Origin: an uncultured Deinococcales bacterium
Lineage (GTDB): Bacteria > Deinococcota > Deinococci > Deinococcales > JAAFIG01
Assembly (NCBI GenBank): GCA_964247135.1
Contig: CAXTTL010000084.1
Coordinates: forward strand, 1 to 18,011
Direction: 5' to 3'
Length of the DNA stretch: 18,011 nt
The first letter of the stretch is position 1. Every line of letters begins with the position of its first letter. The notes under the pieces were generated by a model. That model was not told where the DNA came from. It saw only the letters and a list, made by a program, of their open reading frames with translations, and did not search any database. This document shows positions 126-18,011 of the stretch, in pieces. The position numbers and the translations under genes are program-made.

Positions 126-164
126 CTGCTCCTGTGATTACCTTAACCCACGAAGAATCTCGAG

Positions 165-173
165 TGCTAAAAT
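165..173 (+). promoter_or_regulatory. Extended -10 element (TGc-TAAAAT) for the Uma2 gene
   Basis: TGCTAAAAT at 165-173, followed by GAGGAGG (184-190) and ATG at 196. Confidence 0.5.
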
Positions 174-195
174 GGATTCTATCGAGGAGGTATTC

Positions 196-741
196 ATGAC
201 CATTGCAACTCGAGCGACCATTGATGATTTGATGAATGTTCAAAGTAAAGCCGAACTGATTCAAGGAGAGATTGTTTTTATGGCACCCACAGGGGATTTT
301 CCAAGTTCGGCAGGTGGTGCAGTGTACTCGAGTTTGCGTGATTATGCCCGTAAAACAGGGTTAGGACGTGCGTATACCGATAATGTTGGTTATATCGTGA
401 GATTGCCGCATCGAGAATCCTTCAGCCCGGATTCTTCGTTTCATGTTGGCGAACGAAGCGGAATGCGGTTTCTCGAGGGTGCTCCCATTTTTGCGGTTGA
501 AGTCCGCAGCGAAAATGATTATGGCGACGCGGCGGAACGCAACATGGCGCAAAAACGAGCCGATTATTTTGCTTGTGGAACGTTGGTGGTCTGGGATGTG
601 GATTTGCTTGGAACGGACGTGATTCGTTCGTACCGTGCCGATGCACCCTATTCACCTCGGGTTTTTCGCAAAGATGAATTCGCCAATGCCGAACCCGCAT
701 TGCTTGACTGGACTTTTGCGGTGAACGAATTGTTTGAATGA
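196..741 (+). CDS. Uma2 (DUF820) family PD-(D/E)XK endonuclease-like protein
   Basis: Motifs KAELIQGEIVFMAP, FSPD, APIFAVEVRS, KRADYFACG..VVWDVD. Start moved from 172 to ATG 196 because of the GAGGAGG Shine-Dalgarno. Confidence 0.9.
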   Translation: MTIATRATIDDLMNVQSKAELIQGEIVFMAPTGDFPSSAGGAVYSSLRDYARKTGLGRAYTDNVGYIVRLPHRESFSPDSSFHVGERSGMRFLEGAPIFAVEVRSENDYGDAAERNMAQKRADYFACGTLVVWDVDLLGTDVIRSYRADAPYSPRVFRKDEFANAEPALLDWTFAVNELFE

Positions 742-824
742 TTTCTCGAGATTTCATACCTCTTCCATCCATGACCTTTAAGGTCTAGAATCGGAAAAGC
801 GCAATTGATGCGCGGGAGGTTTTC

Positions 825-1199: not shown

Positions 1200-1217
1200 A
1201 GTTAAGCTCGAGAAACC

Positions 1218-1259: not shown

Positions 1260-1478
1260 TTACAAGAAGTACATGGTTTTGACTTTTGAGAACATGGTCG
1301 GGATGGTGTCAAAGTTCAGAAAATTTGCATCTCCAGGAATAAAAACACTGACGGCAATCAATGCTGAAAAAAGCGTCCACAACGAACCCCACCACCAACC
1401 AATGATGCAAAAGTAGAGTATTCGCAGGATCAACGGGCGTTCGGGTTTGGTTACTGCAACTTGGGCGGTTTCGGTCAT
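1260..1478 (-). CDS. Small membrane protein, YccF-domain-like
   Basis: LRILYFCIIGWWWGSLW resembles the YccF repeat; hydrophobic segment; GAGGA RBS before ATG; ends at the bidirectional terminator. Confidence 0.65.
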   Translation of the reverse strand: MTETAQVAVTKPERPLILRILYFCIIGWWWGSLWTLFSALIAVSVFIPGDANFLNFDTIPTMFSKVKTMYFL

Positions 1479-1525
1479 GAATTCCTCAATTCGGGTGCTG
1501 GTTTTGGTGTCTCGAGCTTAACCTT

Positions 1526-1564
1526 AAAATGAAAAACGTGATGTTCAAAACACCTGAACATCAC
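1526..1564 (-). terminator. Probable intrinsic terminator of gltX
   Basis: Perfect 10-bp stem GTGATGTTCA (1538-1547) / TGAACATCAC (1555-1564), followed on the minus strand by GTTTTTCATTTT; 20 nt after the gltX stop. Confidence 0.65.
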
Positions 1565-1583
1565 CATCATCACCACTCGAGTT

Positions 1584-3008
1584 TTAATTGACTTGATTGC
1601 GAATTCGTTCCAGACACTTTTCTTTACCGAGCACGGTCAAGACTTCAAACATGCCTGGACTCTCGAGCCTGCCCGTGAGTGCCGCGCGAAGTGGCTGCAT
1701 GACTGCGCCCAATTTTGTACCAGTCTTCTCGGCATAACCCTTAAAAATTGGCTCGAGCGTCGCTTGATCCCAGGTTATTGCCGCCTCGAGTTGAGGCAGT
1801 AGAGCTTGTAAATGCTCCAGTCCCTCGAGCATTTTGGCGGCGGCTTTTTCCTCGAGTTCGATGTCTTTAAAAAAGTACGAGACTTTGGCGGGAAGCTCAG
1901 ACAACAAATTAAAACGCTCACGCAAAATCTGAACCACGCTCGAGACGTACTCATGGTTTGAAACGTCAAAGCCAGCCGAAACAAGAAATGGTTTTGCGCG
2001 ATCAACCAGCGTCTCGAGGCTTAAAACCTCACGAATGTACTTGCCGTTGAGCCAGGTCAGTTTCTCGAAATCAAAGACGCTGCCACCCAAACTGACCCGA
2101 TCCCAAGAAAAATACTCGATCATCTCAGAAACGCCAAAGATTTCTCGACCATCGGGCATACTCCAACCCATCATGCCCAAGTAATTTAAGAGGGCTTCGG
2201 GAATCAAACCTTTGGCTTTGTAGGAATCCACGCTGACATCGCCCTTGCGTTTGGAAAGTTTGGTTTTATCGGCGTTCAACAACCAAGGGGTATGAATCCA
2301 CTCGGGTTGCGTCCAACCAAAAGCCTCAAAAATTAAAATGTGAATTGGGGTACTGACCAACCACTCCTCAGCCCGAATGACATGCGTAATGCCCATGTCA
2401 TGATCGTCGCACATGGCTGCCAGATGGTACGTCGGAAAACCATCGGCTTTCAACAGCACTTTATCGTCCAGTTCGGCGTTCTTGAAGACCACATCGCCGC
2501 GCAAACGGTCTTTGACGATTGTTTCACCAGTCAACGGAACTTTTAAACGAATCGCAAATGGTTCACCATTGGCGGCTCGAGCATCGGATTCTGTGGCACT
2601 CAAATCACGGTCACGACGGTCATAACCCCGATACGAGTCTTTGCGGGCTTCAGAGGCTTTGCGGCGCTCATCGAGTTCGGCGGGTGTATCAAAAGCACGG
2701 TACGCCATTCCAGCTTTGAGCATTTGGTTTGCGTAAGCTTGGTGCTGTTCGGCGCGTTCGGTCTGAACATAAGGCGCACTTGGACCGCCTTTTTCTGGCG
2801 ATTCATCGGGTGGTAAACCCAACCACTCGAGCATCTCGAGAATTCGTTTTTGCGATTCTGGATTGAAACGCGCACGGTCTGTATCTTCGATGCGGACGAT
2901 AAAATGCCCAGCATTTTGCTTGGCAAAAACATAATTGTAAAGCGCCTGATACGCCGTTCCAACGTGAGGGTCGCCGGTCGGCGAAGGGGCAATGCGGGTC
3001 TTAATCAT
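1584..3008 (-). CDS. gltX: Glutamate--tRNA ligase
   Basis: TRIAPSPTGDPHVGT (HIGH), RIEDTD, PTYHLA, ITHVIRAEEW, KLSKR (KMSKS), C-terminal anticodon-binding domain PLRAALTG. Start set at ATG 3008; the upstream in-frame extension is REP sequence. Confidence 0.97.
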   Translation of the reverse strand: MIKTRIAPSPTGDPHVGTAYQALYNYVFAKQNAGHFIVRIEDTDRARFNPESQKRILEMLEWLGLPPDESPEKGGPSAPYVQTERAEQHQAYANQMLKAGMAYRAFDTPAELDERRKASEARKDSYRGYDRRDRDLSATESDARAANGEPFAIRLKVPLTGETIVKDRLRGDVVFKNAELDDKVLLKADGFPTYHLAAMCDDHDMGITHVIRAEEWLVSTPIHILIFEAFGWTQPEWIHTPWLLNADKTKLSKRKGDVSVDSYKAKGLIPEALLNYLGMMGWSMPDGREIFGVSEMIEYFSWDRVSLGGSVFDFEKLTWLNGKYIREVLSLETLVDRAKPFLVSAGFDVSNHEYVSSVVQILRERFNLLSELPAKVSYFFKDIELEEKAAAKMLEGLEHLQALLPQLEAAITWDQATLEPIFKGYAEKTGTKLGAVMQPLRAALTGRLESPGMFEVLTVLGKEKCLERIRNQVN

Positions 3009-3047: not shown

Positions 3048-3106
3048 GTAGGGTGCGCCGTGCGCACCAAAAATTGTTGAACGTCGGTGCGCACGGCGCA
3101 CCCTAC
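3048..3106. repeat. REP doublet (REPIN): two inverted 21-nt GTAG-type REPs with a 17-nt spacer
   Basis: GTAGGGTGCGCCGTGCGCACC (3048-3068) and its exact reverse complement (3086-3106). Each unit is GTAG plus the hairpin GGTGCGC-CGT-GCGCACC. Confidence 0.85.
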
Positions 3107-3119
3107 GGAACAAGATTGG

Positions 3120-3125: not shown

Positions 3126-3252
3126 CCTGTTTGACTCGTGTTCTCGAAACTCGAGCTTTGACAACAACGGATTCATGCTTGCAGTTTAACCTCGAGTTTC
3201 TGGTCTGGCATCCTTGAAATGGCGGATGCGATCACAAGTTAAACTTGAAACG

Positions 3253-4635
3253 ATGGCAACGTTACTGATCAAAAACGCAAAAACCCTGGCAACCATGAAC
3301 GCGCAAAAACTCGAGCTAGAAAACGCTGGTTTGTTCGCTCGAGACGGCGTGATTGAACAGGTCGCGCCGACCTCCGAACTGCCGAGCAGTGCCGATGTGG
3401 TGCTGGATTTAACCGACCATGTGGTGCTGCCTGGTTTGGTCAACACGCACCATCATTTTTACCAAACTTTGACTCGAGCCGTGATCGGCGCTCAAAATGC
3501 GAATTTGTTCAATTGGTTGAAAACTTTATACCCAATTTGGGCACGTTTGACACCTGAAGTCATGAGGGTTTCAACGCAACTTGCTTTGGCGGAACTCGCC
3601 CGTTCTGGATGCACCACCGCCAGCGACCACCATTATATTTTTCCAAACGGCTGCACCCTGGACGATCAAATTCTTGCCGCTCGAGAAATTGGTTTGCGGC
3701 TTCATGCGTCTCGAGGGTCGATGAGTCTGGGCGAATCCAAGGGAGGTTTACCGCCAGATCGCGTGGTCGAAAAAGAAGATTTTATTTTGCGCGATTCGCA
3801 ACGTTTGATCGAAACCTTTCACGATCCCAAACCTGGCGCGATGACCAGGGTTGTACTCGCACCGTGCTCGCCGTTCAGCGTCACAAGCGACCTGATGCGA
3901 GAAAGTGCCAGGATGGCTCGAGCTTTCGGTGTCATGCTGCACACGCACTTGGCAGAAACCAAAGACGAAGAACAATTCTGCCTCGCCCGATTTGGCAAAC
4001 GCCCCATTGCCCTCATGCAAGACTTCGAGTGGCTGGGCAGTGATGTCTGGTTTGCCCATGCCGTGCATGTCAATGACCTCGAGATTGCGCAATTTGCAAC
4101 GTGCGGTTGCGGCGTGGCGCACTGCCCGAGCAGCAACATGCGGCTCGCCAGCGGCATTGCCCCGCTCAGAAAGTATTTGAGTGGGGGCGTCAACGTTGGG
4201 CTTGGCGTCGATGGCAGCGCCAGCAATGACGGCTCGAGTCTGCTGCTCGAGGCTCGTCAAGCCATGTTGCTCTCGAGGCTCGAGATTGCCGAACAGGAAC
4301 GGCGCAATGAAGTTTTTAATCCGATTCAACTGACCGCTCGAGAAGCCTTGGAAGTCGCCACCATCGGCGGAGCGAAAGTTTTGGGACGCGACGACATTGG
4401 TTCGCTCGAGGTTGGCAAACGCGCCGATTTTTTTGCCGTCAACCTCAACCGCCTCGAGTTCGCGGGCGCATGGCACGACCCGATTGCCGCCGTGGTGTTT
4501 TGCGCCACACCAAAAGTTGATTTGACCGTGGTCGAAGGCAAAATCATTGTGCAAAATGGCGAATTGCTGACGCTCGAGACACGAGGTTTGATTGAAAGCC
4601 ACAACCGATTGGCGAAGGACTTGGTGAACGGTTGA
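3253..4635 (+). CDS. 8-oxoguanine deaminase-like amidohydrolase (AtzB/5'-methylthioadenosine-deaminase superfamily)
   Basis: PGLVNTHHHFYQ, LAPCSPFS, LHTHLAET, WFAHAVH, HCPSSNMRLASG, GLGVDGSASND. Start at ATG 3253, 7 nt after TAAACT (leaderless layout). Confidence 0.88.
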   Translation: MATLLIKNAKTLATMNAQKLELENAGLFARDGVIEQVAPTSELPSSADVVLDLTDHVVLPGLVNTHHHFYQTLTRAVIGAQNANLFNWLKTLYPIWARLTPEVMRVSTQLALAELARSGCTTASDHHYIFPNGCTLDDQILAAREIGLRLHASRGSMSLGESKGGLPPDRVVEKEDFILRDSQRLIETFHDPKPGAMTRVVLAPCSPFSVTSDLMRESARMARAFGVMLHTHLAETKDEEQFCLARFGKRPIALMQDFEWLGSDVWFAHAVHVNDLEIAQFATCGCGVAHCPSSNMRLASGIAPLRKYLSGGVNVGLGVDGSASNDGSSLLLEARQAMLLSRLEIAEQERRNEVFNPIQLTAREALEVATIGGAKVLGRDDIGSLEVGKRADFFAVNLNRLEFAGAWHDPIAAVVFCATPKVDLTVVEGKIIVQNGELLTLETRGLIESHNRLAKDLVNG

Positions 4636-4818: not shown

Positions 4819-5502
4819 GTGATTCAGTTTCACCGCGTCAGCCTCGAATATCCCGTGACCAAAACCTTGGCGCTCGAGGATGTCAATCTTCACATCAAAA
4901 AGGGCGAGTTTGTGTACCTGACAGGTCATTCGGGTGCGGGCAAGTCGAGTTTTATGGGTTTGGTGATCAAATCGCTCAAACCGACCAAAGGGCAGGTGTA
5001 CGTGGCGGGTGATCCACTCGCCAAATTTAAGGCGGGTCGAATTGCGCAGCACCGTCGGCGCATTGGCATGGTGTTTCAAGACCATCAATTGCTCGATCAC
5101 CTGAGTGTTTTTGAAAATATTGTCTTCGCCCTCAGAATCACGGGTGCTCCCGCCAAAGAGTGGGAGGAGCGCACCATGCACGTCATGCGCATGGTCGGAC
5201 TCGAGCACAAGCGAAACTCCTTTCCGATTCAACTCTCGCAGGGCGAACGCCAACGGGTTGCCATCGCTCGAGCCATCGTGACCAACCCAGTGCTGCTGCT
5301 TGCCGACGAACCCACGGGCAACCTTGACCCCGATGTCAGTTGGGAAATCATGGCGCTCTTGGACGAAATCAACTTAAAAGGGACAACGGTTTTGGTGGCG
5401 ACCCACTCGAGGGAAATTGTGGACCGTCAACGCCGCCGCACCATTACCTTGCGCAAAGGCAAACTCGTGCGCGACGATCCGAACGGTGGGTATGCGATAT
5501 GA
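4819..5502 (+). CDS. ftsE: Cell division ATP-binding protein FtsE
   Basis: Walker A GHSGAGKS, IGMVFQD, LSQGERQRVAIARA, LLLADEPTGNLDP; followed by ftsX. GTG start at 4819 lies 6 nt after TACACT. Confidence 0.95.
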   Translation: MIQFHRVSLEYPVTKTLALEDVNLHIKKGEFVYLTGHSGAGKSSFMGLVIKSLKPTKGQVYVAGDPLAKFKAGRIAQHRRRIGMVFQDHQLLDHLSVFENIVFALRITGAPAKEWEERTMHVMRMVGLEHKRNSFPIQLSQGERQRVAIARAIVTNPVLLLADEPTGNLDPDVSWEIMALLDEINLKGTTVLVATHSREIVDRQRRRTITLRKGKLVRDDPNGGYAI

Positions 5503-5542
5503 GTTTGGTTTTTGAAGCTCGAGCATCGTGGGTTTGTAATTT

Positions 5543-5605
5543 TGAAGGCTTCAAGCTCCAAGCCATAAGCTCCAAGCTTAAAGCTTATCGCTTAGAGTTT
5601 AGATT
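5543..5605 (+). repeat. Degenerate 7-nt tandem repeat array (consensus about TYNAAGC)
   Basis: tgaaggc ttcaagc tccaagc cataagc tccaagc ttaaagc ttatcgc ttagagt ttagatt in the ftsE-ftsX gap. Confidence 0.6.
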
Positions 5606-5629
5606 TACCTTTTCAGGAGCAATTCAATA

Positions 5630-6523
5630 ATGCTGTATCACATCAGGCAATCTTGGATGGCGCTCCGTGCCAACCTCACGGCGGGACTTGCCACGTTGAC
5701 CACCATGACCGTCACCCTGACCATGCTGGCACTCGTGACGCTGGTGGCACTCAACCTCGAGAACATTGTGCGCACCATCGAACGCGATGTGCAAATCACG
5801 GCGTTTCTCGAGAACACCAAAACCCCAGCCCAAGCCGAGGCATTGTCCGAAGCGGTTTTGATGGCGTTGCAGGACAAAACCAAATTTCCGGTGCTCGAGA
5901 GTGCCAAGTTTGTGCCCAAAGTGGAAGCCTACGCGAATTTGGCGATTGATTTTCCGTCGCTGGCAGACGCAACCTCGTTGGTAGAGAACCCTCTCAGTGA
6001 CCGCGTGGTGATCAAACTGACCAGTCCGACCAATCTGGTCAGCACCGCCGCCAACGTCAAAGCGATTGTCGGCGTGAAAGATGTCGAGTACGGCTCTGAC
6101 TTCGCGCAAAAAGTCATCAATGCGATCTCGAGCGTGCGCTGGTTTGGGATTGGACTCGAGGTGCTGCTGCTCTTGAACAGCTTATTCAACATCCTCAACA
6201 CCATTCGGGTTGCCATGTACGCCCGCCGCGACGAGATCAACGTCATGCGGCTGATCGGTGCGACCAGGGGATTTATCCGACTGCCTTACGTGCTCGAGGG
6301 TGTGGGTCTGGGCTTGCTGGCAAGTTTGTTTACGCTCGTCATCGTGTATCCTGCCTATACCAGTGCGGTTGGTCAACTCAGAACGCTCGTGCCGTTTCTG
6401 GCACTTATTGAAGACAATGTGACCGTGTTGCAAGTGCTGGCGCTGATTACGCTTTTGGGTGTGAGTTTGGGATTATTGGGCAGTTTGTGGGCAACCAACC
6501 GTTACCTGCGTGAAGTCGAATAG
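5630..6523 (+). CDS. ftsX: Cell division permease FtsX
   Basis: Four-TM layout, ENPLSD, NTIRVAMYARRDEINVMRLIGATRGFIRLPYVLEG; AGGAG RBS; follows ftsE. Confidence 0.95.
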   Translation: MLYHIRQSWMALRANLTAGLATLTTMTVTLTMLALVTLVALNLENIVRTIERDVQITAFLENTKTPAQAEALSEAVLMALQDKTKFPVLESAKFVPKVEAYANLAIDFPSLADATSLVENPLSDRVVIKLTSPTNLVSTAANVKAIVGVKDVEYGSDFAQKVINAISSVRWFGIGLEVLLLLNSLFNILNTIRVAMYARRDEINVMRLIGATRGFIRLPYVLEGVGLGLLASLFTLVIVYPAYTSAVGQLRTLVPFLALIEDNVTVLQVLALITLLGVSLGLLGSLWATNRYLREVE

Positions 6524-6533
6524 AGGAGACAAC

Positions 6534-7934
6534 ATGACCAAACATCTGGGTGTGATTTTTGTATTGCTGATCTCGAGCCTCTTGACCGTATCACTCGGGC
6601 AGGACACGACCAAACTGCGCGGCTTGGAACAAAATGTGCAATCGCTCGAGCAGAACCTGCAAACCGCCAAAGCCATTCGGGCGCAACAGGCGGCTCGAGC
6701 CTCGGCACTTGAAGCGGAACTGCGAAATTTGGGTGGGCAGGAATCCAAACTGAGCAGCCAAGTTAGGAAGTTAAACGACACGCTGAACAAACTCGAGCTT
6801 GATCGTTTGGCACTCATTCAAGCCATTGACAAAAATCAGAAAGCCTCGAGCAGCCTGCTGGCGCAAATTGCCAAACTCAACCAAACCGTCAGCGACCAGA
6901 AAAAAGCGGTGCAAGAATTGATCGTCAGCATCGACCGCGAACGAAGCTCGAGGTACGTGAAATTGCTGGCGCGGGCGGATAATATTTACGATCTGGCGGT
7001 CAAATCCAAAGACTTAAACATGATTGGGCAGAACAATCTTGATGTGATCGATGCTTTAAAGAAAAGTATTTCTGAGCGCGAACAAAAAAACCTCGAGTTG
7101 CAAAATGTAATCGCGCAACTGAACGCCAACCAGCGCTTTCTCGAGACCAAAAAAGACGCCATCACCCGCAATAGGGGGCAACTGAACGCCAGCATCGCGC
7201 AGTTGCGGCGTACAGCCCAAGGGCGCAAGGTCGTGCTGCTCGAGACGGTCAAAGCGCGGCAACGCAGCGATGCCAGCATTGGCAGCATTTTGAACACGGT
7301 CTTCAGGCAACGCCAGGCGTTAAAGCAGGAACGCGCCAGAATCCTCGAGATTCGGCGTCAGGCTGCGTTGGTTGCCGCCAGAAAAGCGGCTATTGAGCGT
7401 GAACGAATACGGCAAGAGAACACACGAATTGCCAGGATCAGATCGCAAAAAGCCCGAGCGGCAGCCTTGGCGCAAGAGCAAATTCGTCAACAGCAAGCCG
7501 CACAGCAAGCCGCGAATGCTCAGAGCAATTTACCGAGTGTGCCAGTTGCGCAGATTGATTTACCTGCCAGTGTTGGGCGTTTAAGCCAACCAATTCCAGG
7601 TGGAAGAATCACCGCCAATTTCGGGCAGCAAGGCGAATACATGGCAATTCAAGCGGATCAACAAGGGGCTGGAGTCTATGCGGCGGCAGATGGTCAAGTT
7701 GCACAGGTGAGACTCGTGCAAGCCAATTCAGGTTATACGATCATCATTGCCCACACCGACAGTATTTGGACAGTTTATTCAAATATGCAAGACCCACCCG
7801 TTGAACTCGGACAGGTCATCAAGCGAGGACAGTTTATTGGCTATGTCGGCGGTGGCGCGATCAACCCTGCCGATCAACTTCAATTTGCGGTTGCTGTGAA
7901 CGGTGTGCCAGTCGATCCACGCCCGTATTTTTAA
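6534..7934 (+). CDS. EnvC-like murein hydrolase activator (signal peptide, long coiled coil, degenerate M23/LytM domain)
   Basis: Follows ftsEX; AGAGGAG RBS before ATG 6534. The C-terminal M23 fold (VYAAADGQV, GQFIGYVG, VDPRPY) lacks the Zn ligands (YMAIQA, YSNM and DQLQF in place of HxxxD, YxH and HLH), as in EnvC. Confidence 0.85.
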   Translation: MTKHLGVIFVLLISSLLTVSLGQDTTKLRGLEQNVQSLEQNLQTAKAIRAQQAARASALEAELRNLGGQESKLSSQVRKLNDTLNKLELDRLALIQAIDKNQKASSSLLAQIAKLNQTVSDQKKAVQELIVSIDRERSSRYVKLLARADNIYDLAVKSKDLNMIGQNNLDVIDALKKSISEREQKNLELQNVIAQLNANQRFLETKKDAITRNRGQLNASIAQLRRTAQGRKVVLLETVKARQRSDASIGSILNTVFRQRQALKQERARILEIRRQAALVAARKAAIERERIRQENTRIARIRSQKARAAALAQEQIRQQQAAQQAANAQSNLPSVPVAQIDLPASVGRLSQPIPGGRITANFGQQGEYMAIQADQQGAGVYAAADGQVAQVRLVQANSGYTIIIAHTDSIWTVYSNMQDPPVELGQVIKRGQFIGYVGGGAINPADQLQFAVAVNGVPVDPRPYF

Positions 7935-7946: not shown

Positions 7947-8864
7947 TTATGCCCCAATGCCGTACAACGGGTCGTCGTTGCCAATCGCCAGGCTCGTCAC
8001 CGAGAACAAAATGGTGCCGTCAAGCGGCGCAACCACACTTTGCAAAACCTTGCCGAACGGGTCGGTAATCACGCCCAAATCCTGCCCTTTTTTGACCTTG
8101 CCAAGGCGCATTTTGGGATACCACAAACCTGCAATTTCTGAACGCAACCAAGCGAATTGGGTCAATTCGGTACACACCACGGCGTCGGGCGTTCCCTCGA
8201 GCATCCCCAAATGCTGCATGGCGCGTCGCACACCGTTCTCGAGCATGTGAACGTCCTCAGTGGACCACAAGCCGTTGCCGCCCGCCTCAGCCAGAATTGC
8301 GGGAATGTTGGAGGCTCGGGCGGCGGAGGTGGTCGTGCCGCCTGGCGCGGCAGCCACCAACAATGGAATGCCGAACGCTCGGGCGAGCGCCAGGGATTCT
8401 GGGTGTTGTTCAGGGTAAATTGTGAACGGCTCGAGCGCCTCGATCATGTCGCCGCCGTGAAGATCAATGTAAGCATTGGCGGGTTGAATCGCGTTTTCGG
8501 TGATCCACGCCGCGAGTTGCTGCGAGAACGTGCCCTCATAATCGCCTGGAAACTGCCGGTTGAGGTTTTTGCCGTCCACAGGGTTGCTGTAAATGCTTCT
8601 GGCAAGATAGGCGGGCATACACACGATTGGCAAGACCACAAGCGTTCCAGAAATATCGGCGGGCGAAATTCTGGCAATGTTGACCGTCGCCGCGATGCTG
8701 GCGTATTCCGAACCGTGAATTCCCGCCGTGACGACCAGCATCGGTCCAGGTTTTTCGCCTTTGACCACCGTGTACGGCAGGTCAAACGGTGCGTCCAACT
8801 CGAGACGGACATAACCATTGATGCTCGAGCCTGGTTTGACGGTTGCAAACGGAATTTCACTCAT
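7947..8864 (-). CDS. Succinylglutamate desuccinylase/aspartoacylase family (M14-like) metallohydrolase
   Basis: AGIHGSE, NLNRQFPG, IDLHGG, AILAEAG and a C-terminal barrel-sandwich segment; GGAGG RBS. Confidence 0.88.
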   Translation of the reverse strand: MSEIPFATVKPGSSINGYVRLELDAPFDLPYTVVKGEKPGPMLVVTAGIHGSEYASIAATVNIARISPADISGTLVVLPIVCMPAYLARSIYSNPVDGKNLNRQFPGDYEGTFSQQLAAWITENAIQPANAYIDLHGGDMIEALEPFTIYPEQHPESLALARAFGIPLLVAAAPGGTTTSAARASNIPAILAEAGGNGLWSTEDVHMLENGVRRAMQHLGMLEGTPDAVVCTELTQFAWLRSEIAGLWYPKMRLGKVKKGQDLGVITDPFGKVLQSVVAPLDGTILFSVTSLAIGNDDPLYGIGA

Positions 8865-8904: not shown

Positions 8905-10494
8905 TTAGCGGGCGTTGAGCAATTCCCTGGCGTGCTCCACCGCCGCCCTCGAGTCCGAACCGGAGAGCATTCGAGCCAACTCGAGCACCCGATTTTCGCC
9001 GTTTAACTTTTCGACCACGACTTTGGTGCGTCCTTTGACCTCGAGCTTGCTGACCTTAAAATGCTGGGTGGCTCTTGCCGCAATTTGTGCCAGGTGCGTC
9101 ACGACCAAGACTTGATGGCTCGTGGACAATCGCTCGAGTTGTTCGCCGACCGCGATTGCCGCCGCGCCGCCGATGCCGGCGTCAACCTCGTCAAAAATCA
9201 CGCTCGGCGTGCCCGAACCCAGCACGCTCGAGAGTGCCAGCATGACGCGGGAAAGTTCGCCGCCAGAGGCAATCTTTGCCAGGCTCCCGAGCGGTTCGCC
9301 AGGGTTTGCACCGAACCGAATCTCGAGGTTCTCCGCGCCGTTGATGTTGGCGGGGCAGCTTTCAAAACCAAACTCGAGTCTGGCTTTGGGCATCCCGAGG
9401 CTTTGCACGATGCCCTCGAGTTGCGGCGTGACGCGTTTGGCGGTGTCGCGCCTGGCTTTGGAAAGTTTGCTTGCGAGCGTTTCCATTTGGTGTTGCAGCG
9501 GCTCGAGTTGACGTTCCAGATCGCTCGCATCCGATGCCGCACGGTCAAGGTCACCGAGTTCCGCCCGAAGTTCATTGGCGTACTCGAGCACCTCCAAAAG
9601 GGTTGCGCCGTACTTGGCTTTGAGTTTTTCAATCAGTGCCAGCCTCGATTCGACCGCGTCCAACGCCCCAGGTTCGAGGTTGGTGCGCTCGAGAACATCC
9701 CGCGCCTCGCTGGCGATGGCTTGAATGCTCGAGATCGCTTCACGCAAATCCGTGCCGAGTTGTGCGGCGCTGGCATCAAAGCGTGAGGCATTCGAGAGTG
9801 CCCTTGCCGCATCCGCCAGCAATGAAACCGCGTTGACCTCGGCATCCTCGAGCGAATCCACGGCAACGCCCATGTCCTGCGCGATTCGCTCGGCGTTCAA
9901 CAGTCTTTCGCGCTCGAGTCGAAGCGGTTGTTCTTGGCTCGCCTCGAGTTTGGCATCGTCAATTTCTTTGAGTTGATACATCAGCAAATCTGCACGTCGC
10001 GCCCGTTCGCGCTCACCCTCGCGGAGCGCCTCGAGTCTGGCGCTGGCTTCGGAAAAAGTCCTGAATGCGGCACGGTACTTCTCGAGGATTTCTTTGCTGC
10101 TCGCGTCCAAACCCGCGTCCAAAAACTCGCGGTGAAATTGTGGCTCGAGCAACGCCTGCGCCGCGTGCTGCCAGTGCACCGTGACCAAATCTGAGGCGAT
10201 GCTCGAGAGTTCACGGTTGGTCACGACCTCGGCATTGACCCGAGCCGTGCTGCGCCCGCCTGCTTGAATGCGCCGAGACAGCGTGGTGTTCTCCCAAAAA
10301 CCCGTCACCAGCAAACTGTCCTGCCCATGACGCACCAGTTCGGCATCGCCTCGAGCGCCAGTTAAAAGCCAAATCGCATCGACAATGATGCTTTTTCCCG
10401 CGCCCGTTTCGCCCGTAAACACGTTCAAGCCCGTGCCCAACTCGAGTTCGAGTGAATCGATGATCGCCAGGTTTTGAATCTCGAGACGCTGCAT
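8905..10494 (-). CDS. recN: DNA repair protein RecN
   Basis: Walker A TGETGAGKS, coiled coil, ANPGEP, ASGGELSR, IFDEVDAGIGG, VTHLAQIAA. Start at ATG 10494, 10 nt after TATACT. Confidence 0.96.
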   Translation of the reverse strand: MQRLEIQNLAIIDSLELELGTGLNVFTGETGAGKSIIVDAIWLLTGARGDAELVRHGQDSLLVTGFWENTTLSRRIQAGGRSTARVNAEVVTNRELSSIASDLVTVHWQHAAQALLEPQFHREFLDAGLDASSKEILEKYRAAFRTFSEASARLEALREGERERARRADLLMYQLKEIDDAKLEASQEQPLRLERERLLNAERIAQDMGVAVDSLEDAEVNAVSLLADAARALSNASRFDASAAQLGTDLREAISSIQAIASEARDVLERTNLEPGALDAVESRLALIEKLKAKYGATLLEVLEYANELRAELGDLDRAASDASDLERQLEPLQHQMETLASKLSKARRDTAKRVTPQLEGIVQSLGMPKARLEFGFESCPANINGAENLEIRFGANPGEPLGSLAKIASGGELSRVMLALSSVLGSGTPSVIFDEVDAGIGGAAAIAVGEQLERLSTSHQVLVVTHLAQIAARATQHFKVSKLEVKGRTKVVVEKLNGENRVLELARMLSGSDSRAAVEHARELLNAR

Positions 10495-10551
10495 GACTGC
10501 TTTCAGTATACTGGTGAAATTGATTGACAAGATGATGAGGAAAGTTTGGGT

Positions 10552-11690: not shown

Positions 11691-12776
11691 GTGCCTGTCG
11701 CCGAAAAAACATTTCAAATGCTCGAGTTCTTAAGCAAAATCGCGCAAACTCCAGCGCCAAGTTTTCTCGAGACGCCACGCTCGGACTTGATTTTGGAAAC
11801 TTGGGCATCGTTTGGTTTGCAACCAAGCCTCGACGAAATGGGCAATGTGATCGCCAAAGTTGCAGGCAAAAATAAAACTCGAGTGGCATTGTGTGCTCAC
11901 CTGGATACGGTTTTTGATCTGGGTACAGATTTAACGGTGCGTCAACAGGGACACCGTTTGGTTGGCGCTGGCATTGGCGATAACGCGGCAAGTTTAACGG
12001 TTCTCACCGCTTATGCCGAAAAACTGGCGCTCGAGGGTGCACCCTGCGAGGTCTGGTTGGTGGCAAGCACCTGTGAGGAGGGTCTGGGCGATTTGCGAGG
12101 CGCGAAACATTTCCTAAAAAATCATGCCGATCAACTCGATGTGTTTATTGCCGTGGACGGTTACATTGGACTGGTGGTCAACCAAGCCGTCGGCGTGCGC
12201 CGATACCGCGCCAATTTCTCGAGCGAAGGCGGGCACTCTTGGGGCAATGCGGGTTCACCCTCGAGCATTCACGGGCTGTCCGAGGCGGTGCATGAACTTT
12301 ACAAGCTGCCGCTCGAAAGCGACCCGCGCACGACCCTCAGCGTCGGCACGATCTCGGGTGGCACGAGCGTCAACAGCATCGCCGCCAACGCCGACCTGCT
12401 GCTCGACTTGCGAAGCCTCGATTCGGAATCCCTCGAGCAACTTGACCTTCAAGCCCGAGCCGCGATGTTGCGCGGCGCAAAACGTGCCAAGGTCGAATTG
12501 CAACTCGAGCAAGTCGGGAACCGCAGCGCGGGCAAAACCGACACCGCGCAACTGACCAACACCGCCATTCGGGTGCTCGAGCATCTGGGCATTGCCGCTC
12601 GAGCCGTGGCTTCCAGCACCGACGCGAACGCTGCGGTGCCGTTTCATATTCCAGCCATCGGCTTTGGCGTTTACAAGGGCGGGAACGCCCACCGCTTGGA
12701 CGAATGGGTTGATCCCAGCAGTTTGGTACTTGGGCTAAAGGCGCTCGAGGGATTTGTCAATCAACTTGCACTCTAA
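11691..12776 (+). CDS. M20/M25/M40 family metallo-hydrolase
   Basis: AHLDTV, GIGDN, TCEEGLGDLRG, GGHSW, GGTSVNSIA, STDAN, AHRLDEW. GTG start 6 nt after TAAACT. Confidence 0.9.
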   Translation: MPVAEKTFQMLEFLSKIAQTPAPSFLETPRSDLILETWASFGLQPSLDEMGNVIAKVAGKNKTRVALCAHLDTVFDLGTDLTVRQQGHRLVGAGIGDNAASLTVLTAYAEKLALEGAPCEVWLVASTCEEGLGDLRGAKHFLKNHADQLDVFIAVDGYIGLVVNQAVGVRRYRANFSSEGGHSWGNAGSPSSIHGLSEAVHELYKLPLESDPRTTLSVGTISGGTSVNSIAANADLLLDLRSLDSESLEQLDLQARAAMLRGAKRAKVELQLEQVGNRSAGKTDTAQLTNTAIRVLEHLGIAARAVASSTDANAAVPFHIPAIGFGVYKGGNAHRLDEWVDPSSLVLGLKALEGFVNQLAL

Positions 12777-12788
12777 CCTGGCTCGAGT

Positions 12789-14677: not shown

Positions 14678-17029
14678 TTAACGCTCGAGAATGACGCTCG
14701 AGTAATTTGGATCGGCTTTGATTTGCGCGTCGCTAAACGGCAATTTGACAAATTTCTTTTGCGAGTACAATTCGGTCTGGTCGGCATAATGCGCGTTGTC
14801 CGACTGCGGGCTGAGCGAGTACGACAAGAGCGCCTCGGCTTGCGGGTTGTTGTCCGCGTCCCAAGTCACGGTCTGCATGTAACTCGAGCCGTGCATAGGT
14901 TCGTAATGTCCGTCTTTCAAGATTGCGCCCTGATAGTTGTACACGCCCTCATCGCTCGAGCCGCCATGAATCGGGATGTGCTTGTCGCCACGAACTGCGT
15001 ATTGCACGCTGCCAAGGCTGGCATCGAGCGGCACTTTTTGTTTCTCGAGATCAAACACGGCGTCCGTGATCGCGGCATAGACTTGCTCGAGAATCGCGGG
15101 GTCGGTTTTCAAATCCCTGGGTGTGTTGACGGGGTCATTCACATCAAATGGGACTGCCCATAAATCTATCTTTTTGGCTTTAGACCAGAATTCGCGCCAG
15201 ATCACCGCACCCACGCTCTCAAGGTTTTCGCGTTTGTCCCATTTGGCAAGAATCGCGCACGGTTTCTCGAGTTTGCTCGGGCAGTTTTTCACCACCGCAT
15301 CGGTTAATAATTCCGCGCTGAGGTTGCGGTTGGAAAACAAGATTTGTTGCAATTTTTCCAAACTGAATTTGTTGCCAGCCAAACCATCCGTGCCTGCCAG
15401 TCGCTCGAGGATTTGCTTGTAACCAAGACGGGTTCTCAAGCTTCTGGCAGTACCCTCATCGCCGATAATTCTGGGGAAACCGATCAGGGGTTGCTGCAAA
15501 CTCGAGAGCCAATAACTGTCGTTCGAGTTCATGACCCAGTCCGAACGGGTGAGGCTCGGCATGTTTTTGCCAGCGATGATGCCAGCCTGCGGTGCGCCAT
15601 TGTCATTGTCCCAATCGCAGGCACTCGAGCTGCCATCGAGAATCGGCAATTTGGCGGCGGCGTAAATCGCCTTGCCCAAAAAGCCTTGGACGCACTGCTT
15701 GATTTTCTCTTGGCTCACATTCGGCACCACGCTGATATCAGCATAAAACGCATTGCCTGCCGCATCCGCCGCAATGGTATTGACCCAAGGCACCGCCACA
15801 TTTTGCTCGAGCGCCCGTTTGATCCCCGCCACACTTTTTGCCTGGTTGATGCGCCACCACTGTTCAATAAACCTCGAATTTTCCGCGTTGGCATCGCGGA
15901 TGGTATAGGCGAACGTGCTGCCCCAAGTCATACGCAAGGCATCGCTGGCAATCATTTGACCAAAATGCGTGCGCCACAAAGTCCGACTGACATTTTTGAG
16001 GCTGCCGTCGGGCTGTAACACTTGTACTGTCACGGTTTTGCTGGTCATCTTGCGTTTTTCGCCGTCGAACCAATATGAGGTTGGGTCGCCCGCCACCAAT
16101 TTGAGTTCAAAAATCGTGAAACGAAATGCGGTGGAAACCGTGTGCGACCATGCCACGCGGTTGTTAAAACCGATGTTGACCACCGGCACACCCGCCAAAC
16201 TGCCGCCCATGACGTCCAATTTGCCAGGAATGGTCAAGTGCATTTCATAAAATCGGTCTGGTCCAAACCACGGGAAATGCGGGTTGCCCAACAGCATCCC
16301 CCTGCCGTTCTCGGTCACGTCGCGCCCGAGTGCCACGGCGTTGCTGCCCAATTTGGCTTCGTCGGTATCGAGCCTTAAAAAGTCTCGAACCTCTTGGCGT
16401 GACGGAAGCTTCAGGTCTGGTCCGCTCGAGGTTTTTGTGCTGTAGGTCGGCGCTTGTGCCGCGTAAATGGCGTCGGTCAGCGGTTCGCTCGAGGCGTGCG
16501 AGACTTGCTCGAAGTTGTGCCTCAGCAAATCCAAGACCGTGATTTCGCGCAAGTATTTGGCGTCTTTGCAGTCCTGCGAGAATTTACCTTCATTGATAAA
16601 ACGGTTGTAACCCTCGACATAACCCGTCATTTCTTCTTGAAGCTCATGGGGGCTGGCGTTATATGCCTTGACCAAGGCGTTTTCGTCGTAGAACGTTTTG
16701 AAAAAAAAGTCGCTGCGCAAATTGTTGAAACCAGTCCTCGACGCGCCAGATTGCAAACTCGAGCCGTCTGGTCCAAAAAATTTGGATCGCTCGCCAGAAA
16801 TGGTGGTCAAGTGATTGGCGAACATGCAGTGGTTGTCGGTCGCAAAGGCGTAGCCCAAGCCGTAACCCAAGCTGCCGTAATCCTCGGCTTTGATGTGCGG
16901 AATACCATAACTGGTGCGCCGAATCTCGACGCGGTAATGTTCGGTGTCGTGCGCCAAACCCACCACACCAACCGCCAATGCGAGCAAGCCCAATCCAACA
17001 CCAAACGCAAATCGTTTGTTTAAATCCAT
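14678..17029 (-). CDS. Penicillin acylase family (S45) Ntn hydrolase, PvdQ / aculeacin-A acylase / AHL-acylase-like
   Basis: Signal peptide, IRRTSYGIPHI, beta-chain nucleophile GSNAVALG, LLGNPHFPW, AWSHTVS, PWVNTIAAD, NSNDSYW. AAGGAG RBS before ATG 17029. Confidence 0.9.
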   Translation of the reverse strand: MDLNKRFAFGVGLGLLALAVGVVGLAHDTEHYRVEIRRTSYGIPHIKAEDYGSLGYGLGYAFATDNHCMFANHLTTISGERSKFFGPDGSSLQSGASRTGFNNLRSDFFFKTFYDENALVKAYNASPHELQEEMTGYVEGYNRFINEGKFSQDCKDAKYLREITVLDLLRHNFEQVSHASSEPLTDAIYAAQAPTYSTKTSSGPDLKLPSRQEVRDFLRLDTDEAKLGSNAVALGRDVTENGRGMLLGNPHFPWFGPDRFYEMHLTIPGKLDVMGGSLAGVPVVNIGFNNRVAWSHTVSTAFRFTIFELKLVAGDPTSYWFDGEKRKMTSKTVTVQVLQPDGSLKNVSRTLWRTHFGQMIASDALRMTWGSTFAYTIRDANAENSRFIEQWWRINQAKSVAGIKRALEQNVAVPWVNTIAADAAGNAFYADISVVPNVSQEKIKQCVQGFLGKAIYAAAKLPILDGSSSACDWDNDNGAPQAGIIAGKNMPSLTRSDWVMNSNDSYWLSSLQQPLIGFPRIIGDEGTARSLRTRLGYKQILERLAGTDGLAGNKFSLEKLQQILFSNRNLSAELLTDAVVKNCPSKLEKPCAILAKWDKRENLESVGAVIWREFWSKAKKIDLWAVPFDVNDPVNTPRDLKTDPAILEQVYAAITDAVFDLEKQKVPLDASLGSVQYAVRGDKHIPIHGGSSDEGVYNYQGAILKDGHYEPMHGSSYMQTVTWDADNNPQAEALLSYSLSPQSDNAHYADQTELYSQKKFVKLPFSDAQIKADPNYSSVILER

Positions 17030-17054
17030 GCCATTTCTCCTTTTGTTCAGGGCA

Positions 17055-17831
17055 TTATGACCCAGATTTGAAATGGATATTGAAATGCACGATTTTCTCG
17101 AGGGTTGCCGCAATCACAGCACGGTCTTGATTTTGAATGACCGACTCAAGCAATATTGCCGTTTGCGTGTATAAGTCGAGCGCCGCCCATGCTCGAAGCT
17201 CGAGCGAAACGGTTTTTAGCCCAAGTGCAATTTGTTGCAGTTCAACCCATCGCGTCTCGGGTACGAGGTGTTCACGCACAAGCTTGAAATAGCGATTTTC
17301 ACTGTCAATCATGATGCCTTGGGCAACAGCAACGATCCGTGTCATGCCTTCAGCGATTCCCCAAACTGGTGCAATCATCCGTTCAAGGTCATGCAACTCG
17401 AGACCACCCATCATTTTATGAACTTCTTCAGCCCAAGCTTGAAGTTGCTGACTTGCCCAAACGTTGGCTTGTGCTTGCAAATTGGAAAAGTCAAACTCGA
17501 GCGCCAAATGCTTGAAGTGCGCCAAAATTTCGTGTGGATCGTACAAAATCTTGGCTTGCCTGAAACCTGGTACAGCCCAAATGGCATGTTCGGGTCTGGA
17601 AAATTCGAGCATGATTTTTTCTTGGGTCATGTACGTGATGCTGATCAGAACATTGTTGCGGTATTCGTAACGGTGGCTTTCTCTTGGTTCAGAGGCACAC
17701 AAGACCTTTAAATCGATATCGCTGTGGGTATTTTCTTCACCTCGAGCCAAGCTGCCCGTTAAAAAAATGCCCAGGGTTTCAACGTCCTTGAGTTCGGCGA
17801 TCAATGTTTTGAGTAATGGTTCAACATTCAT
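17055..17831 (-). CDS. Nucleotidyltransferase-domain protein (Pol-beta type, KNTase-like architecture)
   Basis: LTGSLARGE..HSDIDL motif plus a helical C-terminal domain; ATG 17831 lies 2 nt after the upstream stop. Confidence 0.8.
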   Translation of the reverse strand: MNVEPLLKTLIAELKDVETLGIFLTGSLARGEENTHSDIDLKVLCASEPRESHRYEYRNNVLISITYMTQEKIMLEFSRPEHAIWAVPGFRQAKILYDPHEILAHFKHLALEFDFSNLQAQANVWASQQLQAWAEEVHKMMGGLELHDLERMIAPVWGIAEGMTRIVAVAQGIMIDSENRYFKLVREHLVPETRWVELQQIALGLKTVSLELRAWAALDLYTQTAILLESVIQNQDRAVIAATLEKIVHFNIHFKSGS

Positions 17832-17833
17832 GC

Positions 17834-18011
17834 TCAAAACCAATCGGGTTTCATCTCGAGCACCGTCACATCCAAACTCGAGAGTACGTTTGACCAAACC
17901 CAAACTTTGGGCAGTTCAAATCGGTAAAAGTACGTGCAGGTTTGAATTTTGCCCGTATAGAAGCTCAAATCATCTTCGGATGGTGACTTTTTTAAGGCTC
18001 GAGCCACGACC
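17834..18011 (-). CDS. Acyl-CoA dehydrogenase, C-terminal fragment
   Basis: My own translation: VVARALKKSPSEDDLSFYTGKIQTCTYFYRFELPKVWVWSNVLSSLDVTVLEMKPDWF*. FYxGKxxxxxYFxxxELP is typical of the acyl-CoA dehydrogenase C-terminal domain. Confidence 0.8.
   Translation of the reverse strand, partial: VVARALKKSPSEDDLSFYTGKIQTCTYFYRFELPKVWVWSNVLSSLDVTVLEMKPDWF

Follow-up and report, generated by a model that had tools for sequence, protein, structure and literature searches.

CTCGAG as a highly iterated palindrome in an uncultured Deinococcales bacterium and its relatives

In an uncultured Deinococcales bacterium the hexamer CTCGAG is a true member of the HIP (highly iterated palindrome) class, and a DNA-level force favours the exact hexamer throughout the resident genome, with equal strength in coding and non-coding DNA. 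As a whole explanation we propose a word of this kind together with a sequence-specific reader that may act in recombination or repair, a reading that we put close to, but short of, an even chance. A literature search found no published report of CTCGAG hyper-abundance.

Abundance in the window and in the genome

The window (the whole stretch of DNA that was analysed, 18,011 bases) holds exactly 133 CTCGAG, one per 135 bp, with the first at 159 and the last at 17998-18003. Over 200 dinucleotide-preserving shuffles of the window the mean was 3.44 copies (sd 1.8, largest 9), and none of the 200 reached 133. The features concerned are as follows.

159..18003, no strand: dispersed CTCGAG copies, 133 against 3.44 expected; the unit is the bare hexamer and the flanks are near random
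3150..3196, no strand: intergenic CTCGAG pair (3150 and 3191) between gltX and the amidohydrolase gene
3214..4635, plus strand: amidohydrolase ("deaminase") ORF with 15 CTCGAG, 10.5 per kb, in three frames (7/6/2)
4272..4284, no strand: nearest CTCGAG pair of the window, spacing 7 bp
8905..10530, minus strand: recN with 22 CTCGAG, 13.5 per kb
12744..12787, no strand: CTCGAG pair (12744 and 12782) flanking the M20 peptidase stop codon on both sides
159, 745, 1207, 1511, 1576, 3150, 3191, 4638, 4760, 5518, 7939, 12782 and 17998: intergenic CTCGAG positions

Seventeen of the 22 recN sites are read as CTC GAG (Leu-Glu) and five lie in the remaining two frames, while the amidohydrolase ORF has seven read as CTC GAG (Leu-Glu), six as xCT CGA G and two as xxC TCG AGx. 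DNA outside the 15 listed ORFs (1,351 bp of the window) carries 13 sites, or 9.6 per kb. The first-pass annotation had counted about 133 copies by hand, one per about 135 bp, with 22 in recN, 15 in the deaminase gene (7 Leu-Glu, 6 x-Arg, 2 other) and further copies between genes, and exact counting agrees with it on each figure. A REP-like hairpin, separate from CTCGAG, is found at 3048-3106.

The genome to which the window belongs (5.09 Mb, 84% complete) has 33,925 CTCGAG, one per 150 bp or 6,660 per Mb, making it the commonest of all hexamers, with observed/expected ratios of 24.8 (zero order) and 35.2 (first order). The maximal-order Markov ratio is only 1.24, but this null is unfair, since CTCGAG itself raises the counts of the overlapping pentamers. 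All 825 five-kb windows of the genome hold at least 8 sites, and density runs from 2.6 to 10.5 per kb over the 297 contigs of at least 5 kb, so enrichment on this contig alone, named earlier as an outcome that would refute the claim, does not apply. The first-pass annotation had also taken the hexamer as the unit on the grounds that its flanks vary, and this holds genome-wide: G at -1 and C at +1 each reach 38.6%, composition beyond +/-1 is near background, and the palindrome runs on beyond the hexamer in 21% of cases versus 25% by chance.

Loss of the excess under codon-preserving shuffling would likewise have refuted the claim. With the protein and per-gene codon usage kept, within-gene synonymous shuffling gave 3,934 +/- 78 sites (20 replicates, largest 4,030) versus 27,882 observed, leaving an excess of about 7-fold that is present in all three frames (17,038, 4,400 and 6,444 sites; 5.6x, 13.6x and 11.4x over the shuffle). 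Site density is 7.39 per kb outside ORFs versus 6.52 in coding DNA. Exact sites outnumber their one-off neighbours by a ratio of 34 in coding DNA and 38 in non-coding DNA, about 35x over a composition-matched one-letter neighbour, and for transition neighbours alone the ratio is 17.5 versus 17.4. Leu-Glu, at an observed/expected ratio of 2.39, ranks first among the 400 dipeptides versus 1.02 for Glu-Leu, and 76.9% of Leu-Glu pairs are written CTCGAG versus about 5% expected. The force acting on CTCGAG can fix one synonymous codon over another and goes as far as to fix amino acids (Leu-Glu). That some process at the level of DNA generates the motif or selects for it stands as a description of its behaviour, which survives synonymous shuffling and is both genome-wide and lineage-wide.

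Site retention, spacing and distribution in Deinococcota

Across five same-genus genomes (~84% nucleotide identity), 70-82% of CTCGAG sites are kept versus 37-40% of control hexamers, a roughly twofold higher retention. In recN, 16 of the 22 positions are common to a same-genus genome and 8-10 to each of five out of six other-genus family members, with 3 of 22 in the remaining member (G143), where about 0.2 would be expected by chance. As judged from these sequence comparisons, some individual sites clearly persist from one species to the next, while others come and go. Spacing shows at most a mild regularity, at short range: the variance/mean ratio of counts is 0.79 at 150 bp, counts are over-dispersed from 1.2 kb up (1.89 at 5 kb), and the gaps (CV 0.96) are depleted below 20 bp and in excess at 50-200 bp. 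The short-gap depletion is partly forced by non-overlap, and no two sites in the genome lie 6 bp apart, since that arrangement would contain GAGCTC, a word with 0 copies.

Genome-wide, the first 25 bp after stop codons carry 13.0 CTCGAG per kb versus about 6.5, roughly a doubling, and 423 of 3,931 genes have at least two sites within 60 bp past the stop versus about 242 expected from a Poisson estimate; such pairs near gene ends are often the arms of hairpins. At the other extreme, 85 CTCGAG-free gaps of at least 1 kb have a mean GC of 0.447 versus 0.527 for the genome, and these low-GC islands are recently imported DNA that the CTCGAG-favouring force has not yet affected.

Our sample comprised 364 Deinococcota genomes, all but one within one order, and most of the compared genomes are incomplete MAGs. 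All 19 genomes of the window's family are enriched (4.3-6.8 sites per kb over GC 44-60%, observed/expected 13 to 37). Other families of the phylum show a weaker, moderate enrichment that does not extend to Deinococcus-like or Thermus-like genera, so absence from related genomes, a further refuting outcome, does not apply; a check of the raw reads carried almost no information. CTCGAG is the top palindrome in all nine enriched samples, which span four families, at 1.7-10x over synonymous shuffles. Many Deinococcus-like genomes strongly avoid the word, with for example 26-150 sites in 2.6-4.8 Mb. A RecN tree places a genome that has lost the motif (G124) within a genus rich in it, and puts the Thermus-like and Deinococcus-like groups inside the spread of motif-bearing lineages, making one old origin with several losses the simplest history. 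With the same word shared by four families of the order, this phylogenetic pattern favours an old trait that would have arisen once and been lost repeatedly. Two motif on/off contrasts exist in nature, G123 versus G124 and g21 versus g22.

Possible causes of the enrichment

Methylation-directed biased repair, as in Elhai's HIP model, would have an orphan methyltransferase mark CTCGAG and methyl-directed mismatch repair or conversion create and keep the sites, with the enzyme replaced non-orthologously across lineages. In the portions of the literature available to us, cyanobacterial HIP1 and alternate HIPs accompany cognate methyltransferases, m5C and m4C enzymes interchange (PMC4390886), and CTCGAG-specific m5C methylation occurs in Halorubrum (PMC8112702). 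Every family genome encodes some DNA methyltransferase, and the motif-losing G124 has no match to three methyltransferase families, both of which fit the model. What it lacks is a common enzyme: no universal methyltransferase ortholog group was found in the 19 family genomes with PF00145, PF01555, PF02086 and PF02384 (for PF07669 the search covered just the genome of the window plus five contrast genomes). In a clustering that took in 30 of 70 C5 and 29 of 65 N6_N4 matches, the widest C5 cluster spanned 7 genomes of a single genus and N6_N4 clusters at most 3 genomes. No C5 enzyme was found in G126 (91% complete) and no N6_N4 enzyme in G143 (closed), while the sole N6_N4 gene of the former and the sole C5 gene of the latter have 0 CTCGAG and low GC and look recently acquired. 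Two candidates, which had seemed conserved, proved patchy when profiled phylum-wide, one being a PvuII-type R-M system and the other a mobile Dam-like enzyme that is present in motif-poor genomes too. No Vsr (PF03852) match turned up in the genome of the window at its 84% completeness, and the T-containing variants CTTGAG and TTCGAG are not depleted (observed/expected 1.17 and 1.74). The first-pass annotation had listed methylation-directed repair as a candidate, and with no CTCGAG/TCGA methyltransferase ortholog or Vsr-like nuclease tracking the enrichment it loses support; non-orthologous enzymes of the same specificity are not excluded and the methylation state is undetermined, and we now consider this account unlikely. 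Nor was any XhoI-type nuclease found to track the motif, and the responsible gene, reported as not evident in the window, did not come to light in the wider genome. The nuclease bears on a further account, in which a site-rich and heavily methylated genome would be favoured for marking self DNA, or for excluding or taming CTCGAG-cutting restriction systems, in an arms race. The avoidance of CTCGAG in many Deinococcus-like genomes suggests that CTCGAG-specific restriction circulates in the phylum, and other palindromes are extremely purged from this genome. However, the XhoI-family nuclease PF04555 matched neither the window's own genome nor any of 54 genomes (no control genome matched either, so absence is not shown), no conserved methyltransferase was found, and protection alone predicts no enrichment beyond neutrality, leaving us with little belief in this account.

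Other accounts need no methylation. The enrichment could be a functionless by-product of context-specific mutation, repair or gene-conversion bias in (probably polyploid) bacteria, a molecular drive without benefit. The equal bias in coding and non-coding DNA, the overriding of protein sequence, the gradual gain of CTCGAG by imported DNA and the repeated losses without obvious consequence all agree with this. With that said, density stays steady over a wide GC range while observed/expected varies nearly threefold, spacing is locally under-dispersed and positions persist between genera; together these suggest a favoured density rather than blind bias, although none of them is decisive. We also know of no enzyme with such a CTCGAG-biasing specificity, and hold the by-product account to be quite improbable. 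A nucleoid-structuring protein needing a binding site every 100-200 bp would account for the roughly constant density, the local under-dispersion, the few gaps below 20 bp and the excess at 50-200 bp. Six-base palindromes are, however, typical of restriction and methylation enzymes and not of architectural proteins, no candidate protein was found, and counts show over-dispersion from 1.2 kb upwards, so that such a protein is very doubtful. Explanation by a protein or codon effect (Leu-Glu, or CTC and GAG as codons), by a family of dispersed repeats or by faulty assembly can appeal to the Leu-Glu frame, which holds 61% of coding sites (17,038/27,882), but the excess over the protein- and codon-preserving shuffle reaches 11-14x in the other frames, non-coding DNA is at least as dense and Glu-Leu is not enriched. 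The flanks are random and 19 independently assembled genomes share the trait; these readings are refuted by the shuffle, dipeptide, flank and 19-genome data, and we leave them next to no probability.

The reader-based explanation is the one we prefer. An unidentified sequence-specific DNA reader would recognise CTCGAG, and through it sites could gain a fixation advantage in recombination or repair between the cell's own genome copies or with incoming kin DNA. Such a reader would be neither a classical restriction-modification system nor one conserved orthologous methyltransferase. That the hexamer is the target of a reader acting in this way is a tentative inference from our analysis, to which we give somewhat less than an even chance. 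Deinococcus and Thermus are classic naturally transformable genera, and since the Deinococcus-like and Thermus-like genera lack the motif, a simple uptake-signal reading misfits the phylum. The proposed recombination role parallels what the accessible parts of two reports describe for HIP1, which boosts transformation and recombination (Kamoku & Nielsen; Rodriguez-Cruz et al. 2026). Because no reader protein was found, the mechanism rests on this analogy, and the equal bias in coding and non-coding DNA fits a functionless repair or conversion bias just as well. It is possible, though on balance improbable, that the drive is ancient, as old as the common ancestor of the order or older, independent of any cognate methyltransferase, read by an unknown reader among genome copies, and later lost independently in Deinococcus-like, Thermus-like and some reduced lineages. 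If true, this would add a second system to the HIP type, the only one so far that lies outside cyanobacteria and the only one that works without a cognate methylase; the G123/G124 and g21/g22 contrasts could then lead to the machinery and might account for HIP1 too.

Comparison with known systems

Chi-type hotspots are asymmetric, replication-oriented words read by RecBCD or AddAB; CTCGAG is palindromic and cannot be oriented, and the RecB/AddAB-type PDDEXK_1 nuclease domain matches Thermus thermophilus too, giving no contrast with motif bearers. A REP or MITE repeat is ruled out by the absence of common extended flanks, and an XhoI/PaeR7I-type R-M target by enrichment in place of avoidance, with PF04555 unmatched, as noted, in these genomes and in the control genomes alike. 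Dcm/Vsr very-short-patch repair in E. coli raises CCWGG, an example of how repair bias on a methylated palindrome can raise the frequency of a word, but the CTCGAG effect is far larger, and a Vsr by-product is disfavoured by the lack of a vsr match in the 84%-complete genome and by the undepleted T variants described above. The DUS/USS of Neisseria and Haemophilus are non-palindromic words of 9-12 bases that occur about once per kb in naturally competent lineages. Like CTCGAG, these signals (mentioned in the accessible part of PMC5861425) are carried into proteins, are enriched just past genes and can form terminator hairpins; CTCGAG does not fit among them, as it consists only of a palindromic hexamer, is present 6.7 times per kb and is missing from Deinococcus-like and Thermus-like genera. 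Helicobacter CCGG is likewise a restriction-type palindrome in unexplained excess, but according to the part of Rusinov et al. 2015 (PMC4687349) available to us it is over-represented only ~1.4-1.5-fold and CCGG R-M genes are present, whereas the CTCGAG excess is 25-35-fold and no matching system was found.

The alternate HIPs (GGCGCC, GCsGC and rCCGGy; Elhai 2015, PMC4390886) come closer, each being a lineage-specific palindrome in the HIP role, six-base words included. As far as the available part of that source goes, they have a cognate methyltransferase in the same genome and are confined to one strain, while CTCGAG has none assignable and is common to several families. HIP1 itself (GCGATCGC, cyanobacteria) is ruled out as the word in question, since its core CGATCG is nearly absent from the genome (47 copies in 5.09 Mb, observed/expected 0.03). 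From what is accessible of PMC4390886 and PMC5861425 (Xu, Lawrence & Durand 2018), DmtA and DmtC track HIP1, and CTCGAG, for which no co-extensive orthologous methyltransferase was found, fails HIP1's methylase criterion. It also differs in belonging to another phylum and in being another word, a hexamer and not an octamer. The likenesses drawn from the same portions of these two sources are extensive: each word is a short, GC-rich palindrome present at tens of times its expected frequency, in every reading frame as well as in intergenic DNA, and its sites are retained more often than background sequence. Each also shows a slight regularity of spacing (for CTCGAG at most at short range), runs through its lineage apart from exceptional losses, and is rare in DNA of foreign origin. 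The description of CTCGAG as HIP1-like outside cyanobacteria stands as an account of its behaviour, and at 6,660 per Mb it is denser than HIP1, for which the part of PMC4390886 available gives 300-2,700 per Mb.

CTCGAG in the genome and in its proteins

The palindrome CTCGAG occurs 133 times in the window, against 3.44 ± 1.8 in dinucleotide-preserving shuffles, and none of 200 shuffles reached that number (maximum 9). The enrichment described in the first-pass annotation is therefore real, and its counts of 22 sites in recN and 15 in the amidohydrolase ORF (frame split 7/6/2), as well as its report of sites between genes (13 within 1,351 intergenic bases), were confirmed. The window is the entire contig C84, and the enrichment is not limited to this contig but genome-wide, with each of 825 five-kb windows holding at least 8 sites. 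The genome (5,091,702 bases, 386 contigs, GC 52.7%) contains 33,925 copies, or one per 150 bp, making CTCGAG the top-ranking hexamer by count with observed/expected ratios of 24.8 (zero-order) and 35.2 (first-order). A maximal-order Markov model gives a ratio of 1.24 and was discarded as a null because CTCGAG inflates its own sub-words; 62% of the genome’s TCGA tetramers sit within CTCGAG. The flanks are nearly random and the palindrome stops at the hexamer, so these sites are not a repeat family, and an Rfam search of the window gave no family matches. Raw-read evidence is slight: run X1, stored as contigs, contained 0.11 of the sampled words, and only one 151-base contig matches without differences, spanning the copies at 8799 and 8824. 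Within the window, CTCGAG is scarcest in a WGR/DUF1963 gene at 10552-11583 on the minus strand, with only 2.9 per kb, and in a 124-codon ORF at 825-1199, with none.

Long ORFs chosen greedily (4,211 in total) stood in for coding DNA genome-wide; CTCGAG density is 6.52 per kb in them, compared to 7.39 per kb in the remainder. As a null we shuffled synonymous codons within each gene, which preserves all proteins and per-gene codon usage and is conservative since the motif has already left its mark on that codon usage. The first-pass view that protein content does not explain the sites held up, as the shuffle does not abolish the excess (27,882 observed vs 3,934 ± 78), which is present in every frame (17,038 vs 3,045, 4,400 vs 324 and 6,444 vs 564). 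Exact sites outnumber the 18 one-letter neighbours combined (33,925 vs 22,412); transitions are the commonest of these neighbours and no T variant is depleted. After correction for composition, exact sites exceed neighbours by a factor of 34 in coding DNA and 38 in non-coding DNA; against transition neighbours alone the factors are 17.5 and 17.4. The force favouring CTCGAG therefore acts at the DNA level irrespective of coding, and with the same strength in both. CTCGAG has also reshaped proteins. Leu-Glu has an observed/expected ratio of 2.39, the highest of 400 dipeptides, with Glu-Leu at 1.02, and 76.9% of Leu-Glu pairs are written CTCGAG, compared to about 5% predicted from codon usage without context.

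At short range, spacing of the sites is mildly regular, with a variance/mean of 0.79 in 150-bp bins, a depletion of gaps under 20 bp and an excess of gaps of 50–200 bp; from 1.2 kb upwards, counts are over-dispersed. No two sites lie 6 bp apart, since that spacing would produce GAGCTC, of which the genome has no copy. In the first 25 bp 3′ of stop codons the density is twice as high, and site pairs there are often the arms of hairpins. The 66 tRNA genes hold 10 copies vs 34 predicted from genome density, so even structural RNA genes take up the word, at approximately one third of that density:

Contigs C8, C14, C46, C157 and C221, eight tRNA genes: 10 tRNA-borne copies of CTCGAG

There are 85 CTCGAG-free stretches of at least 1 kb, with a mean GC of 0.447 vs 0.527 for the genome and 41 of them below 0.45, and they look like imported DNA. 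Two gaps of normal GC were considered as rRNA and this was ruled out; they contain ordinary transporter and surface-protein genes.

Other palindromes are purged from this genome far beyond usual restriction avoidance. Counts in 5.09 Mb are GAGCTC 0, GGGCCC 1, CGGCCG 3, AGGCCT 4, CGTACG 5, GGATCC 7, CCGCGG 11, CAGCTG 15 and GCATGC 17, and the window has no copy of GGCC, GAGCTC, CAGCTG, CTGCAG or GGATCC. In principle, a genome free of a site could carry the nuclease without the methylase. A separate repeated element was also seen, which recurs dozens of times in similar form, in either orientation, in five genomes of the same genus:

Window 3048-3106: REP-like hairpin, each arm about 21 bases long, upstream of gltX

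Distribution and persistence across Deinococcota

CTCGAG was counted in 364 whole Deinococcota genomes, and its reversal GAGCTC served as the control; the unpublished genome G324 is among them, and no specific claim is built on it. Density is graded, from 0.01 to 8.6 per kb. In the window’s family, f1, all 19 genomes from five genera fall at 4.3–6.8 per kb, with a GC of 44–60% in loci sampled around recN. Only 3 of the 125 genomes of family f2 are CTCGAG-rich (G002, 3.6; G122, 8.6; G123, 7.0 per kb), and the remaining 122 have at most 0.46 per kb, many far under expectation. Family f4 has 1.2–3.5 per kb in the 34 genomes of genera g18–g21 and 0.6–1.6 per kb in the 32 of the Thermus-like genus g22, which is 0.7–1.8 times the GAGCTC control, and families f5 and f3 have 0.3–2.8 and 0.7–2.9 per kb, respectively. 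Using 2–20 kb of DNA per genome, intermediate and rich lineages showed 1.7–10 times the synonymous shuffle with non-coding density about equal to coding, and samples of G124, G118, G003, G209 and G158 showed no excess (0.1–1.2 times). CTCGAG was the top palindrome in all nine enriched samples and in none of the four poor ones. Many of the 111 genomes of the Deinococcus-like genus g8 (f2) strongly avoid the word, with for example 26–150 sites in 2.6–4.8 Mb, the reverse of what is seen in the sister clade of g8.

Whether this distribution reflects many gains of the same word or one origin followed by losses was considered on a rapidly built maximum-likelihood tree of RecN (43 rows), supported by SH-aLRT only. 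In this tree G124 lies on a long branch within a motif-rich genus beside G123 (support 88, inside a clade of 99), G002 joins genus g12 and is sister to the motif-poor clade of g6, g8, g9 and g10, and the Thermus-like genus is nested inside f4. Since motif-poor lineages are nested in this way, a single origin followed by four or more losses is simpler than repeated gains, though this relies on a single-gene tree. G124 (2.3 Mb), with 0.2–0.55 CTCGAG per kb in eleven 20-kb samples, has lost the motif, and a search of it for three methyltransferase families gave no match. A possible ‘protein fossil’ of the lost motif in G124 was rejected, as a Leu-Glu ratio of 1.68 in a 20-kb sample fell to 1.27 ± 0.06 over 220 kb, near the Thermus-like value of 1.22.

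At the level of individual sites, five genomes of the same genus (~84% DNA identity to the window) keep 70–82% of the window’s CTCGAG intact vs 37–40% of control hexamers, and losses among them are mainly single transitions. RecN of 12 family members has 58 distinct CTCGAG positions, 17 of them restricted to one genome. The window’s recN shares 16 of its 22 sites with a congener. Of six relatives from other genera, five share 8–10 of the 22 and the sixth, the closed f1 genome G143, shares 3, where about 0.2 is expected by chance. Positions that are Leu-Glu in the window’s genome are often Leu-Asp, Ile-Glu or Phe-Glu elsewhere. Judged from these alignments, shared and unique positions together with residue swaps indicate long persistence of sites alongside turnover, amino-acid changes included.

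Candidate causes

The first-pass annotation had suggested that an orphan methyltransferase or a Vsr-like nuclease might track the enrichment, and neither was found. The window’s genome carries methyltransferases of several classes. Clustering the matches to PF00145, PF01555, PF02086 and PF02384 in the 19 f1 genomes gave no ortholog group universal to them, and a search of the window’s own genome for Vsr gave no match. No C5 enzyme was found in G126 (91% complete) and no N6_N4 enzyme in the closed G143, and the sole N6_N4 gene of G126 and sole C5 gene of G143 look recently acquired, given their low GC and absence of CTCGAG. A 538-aa Eco57I-family match in G143 is actually a Type I HsdM subunit (PDB 3ufb, E = 3.6e-209). 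Two candidates seemingly conserved across families were profiled phylum-wide, with the following genes concerned:

Contig C36 (locus L036), 5239-5727, minus strand: PvuII-family nuclease (E = 9e-67)
Contig C36 (locus L036), 6005-7057, plus strand: methylase paired with this nuclease, the pair flanked by a ketoacyl synthase gene and alaS
Contig C320 (locus L189), 1414-2253, minus strand: Dam-like D12 methyltransferase of group B, 75–93% identity across f1 genera

The C36 N6_N4 enzyme is 67% identical between the window’s genome and G123 but patchy, occurring in 3 of 18 other f1 genomes and 5 of 111 motif-poor g8 genomes. Its PvuII-family neighbour identifies the pair as a CAGCTG restriction-modification system, whose presence explains the scarcity of CAGCTG in this genome, and the pair was found at 9 of 12 loci from four families of the phylum, so it is mobile. 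The C320 enzyme is likewise patchy and mobile, present in 6 of 18 other f1 genomes and, at ~70% identity, in eight motif-poor g8 genomes; being more conserved than RecN, it was probably transferred horizontally. Group A of the Dam-like D12 enzymes is missing from nine f1 genomes by family search. From gene content alone, CTCGAG is apparently uncoupled from any conserved methyltransferase, although enzymes of the same specificity but other ancestry, and methylation state, are not covered.

XhoI-family nucleases gave no match in the 55 genomes searched (0/1 and 0/54), in a search without a positive control. An expansion of Uma2 nucleases, prompted by the window gene at 172-741, was set aside when an iterative search gave one copy in the genome, and an AddAB/RecB-type nuclease offers no contrast, as the domain family also matches in Thermus thermophilus.

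Comparison with HIP1

For some thirty years, the highly iterated palindromes (HIPs) of cyanobacteria have remained puzzling. CTCGAG is a second case, independent of the first, denser and in a different phylum; the phenomenon is thus not specific to cyanobacteria. The new case has assets that HIP1, the cyanobacterial one, lacks: a graded density series, the apparent uncoupling from a conserved methyltransferase, and on/off contrasts within a genus (G122 and G123 vs G124) and within a family (g18–g21 vs the Thermus-like g22). Further contrasts in density are those between G142 (6.5 per kb) and G143 (4.6 per kb), and between g7 with g12 and g6 with g8–g10. Comparative genomics and methylome data can therefore directly test what reads such words, and why; genetics could contribute as well should cultured strains exist among the intermediate lineages, a possibility suggested by their complete genomes. 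In practical terms, CTCGAG distorts codon usage and protein composition, flags imported DNA, and would have XhoI-type enzymes cut this genome’s DNA about every 150 bp.

The portions of recent studies available to us (Kamoku & Nielsen; Rodriguez-Cruz et al. 2026) tie HIP1 to transformation and recombination. This link is the basis of the mechanism we prefer, inferred by analogy, in which an unidentified sequence-specific DNA reader would favour CTCGAG during recombination or repair. A version in which the word serves as an uptake signal is a poor fit, as neither the Deinococcus-like nor the Thermus-like genera are enriched in CTCGAG. Our literature search, which did not cover supplements, returned no report of CTCGAG enrichment or of a HIP-type word in Deinococcota, and there is no mention of a CTCGAG case in the parts available of the main texts of Elhai 2015 (PMC4390886), Xu et al. 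2018 (PMC5861425) and Rusinov et al. 2015 (PMC4687349).

The first-pass description of CTCGAG as HIP1-like stands for its behaviour and not for the defining feature tested, a co-extensive orthologous methyltransferase. CTCGAG works like a HIP, and with that feature not met we file it as HIP-like rather than as HIP1. As far as the accessible parts of PMC4390886 and PMC5861425 describe HIP1 and the alternate HIPs, the likeness extends to a hyper-abundant palindrome that is conserved, found in all frames, present across the lineage except where it has been lost, rare in imported DNA and, less clearly, mildly regular in spacing. HIP1 is lost in reduced cyanobacterial genomes, to which the motif loss in G124 is a parallel. 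Beyond the missing co-extensive orthologous methyltransferase, CTCGAG differs from HIP1 in phylum, in word and in length, and also in density, at ~6,660 per Mb compared to the 300–2,700 per Mb quoted for HIP1 in the portion seen of PMC4390886.
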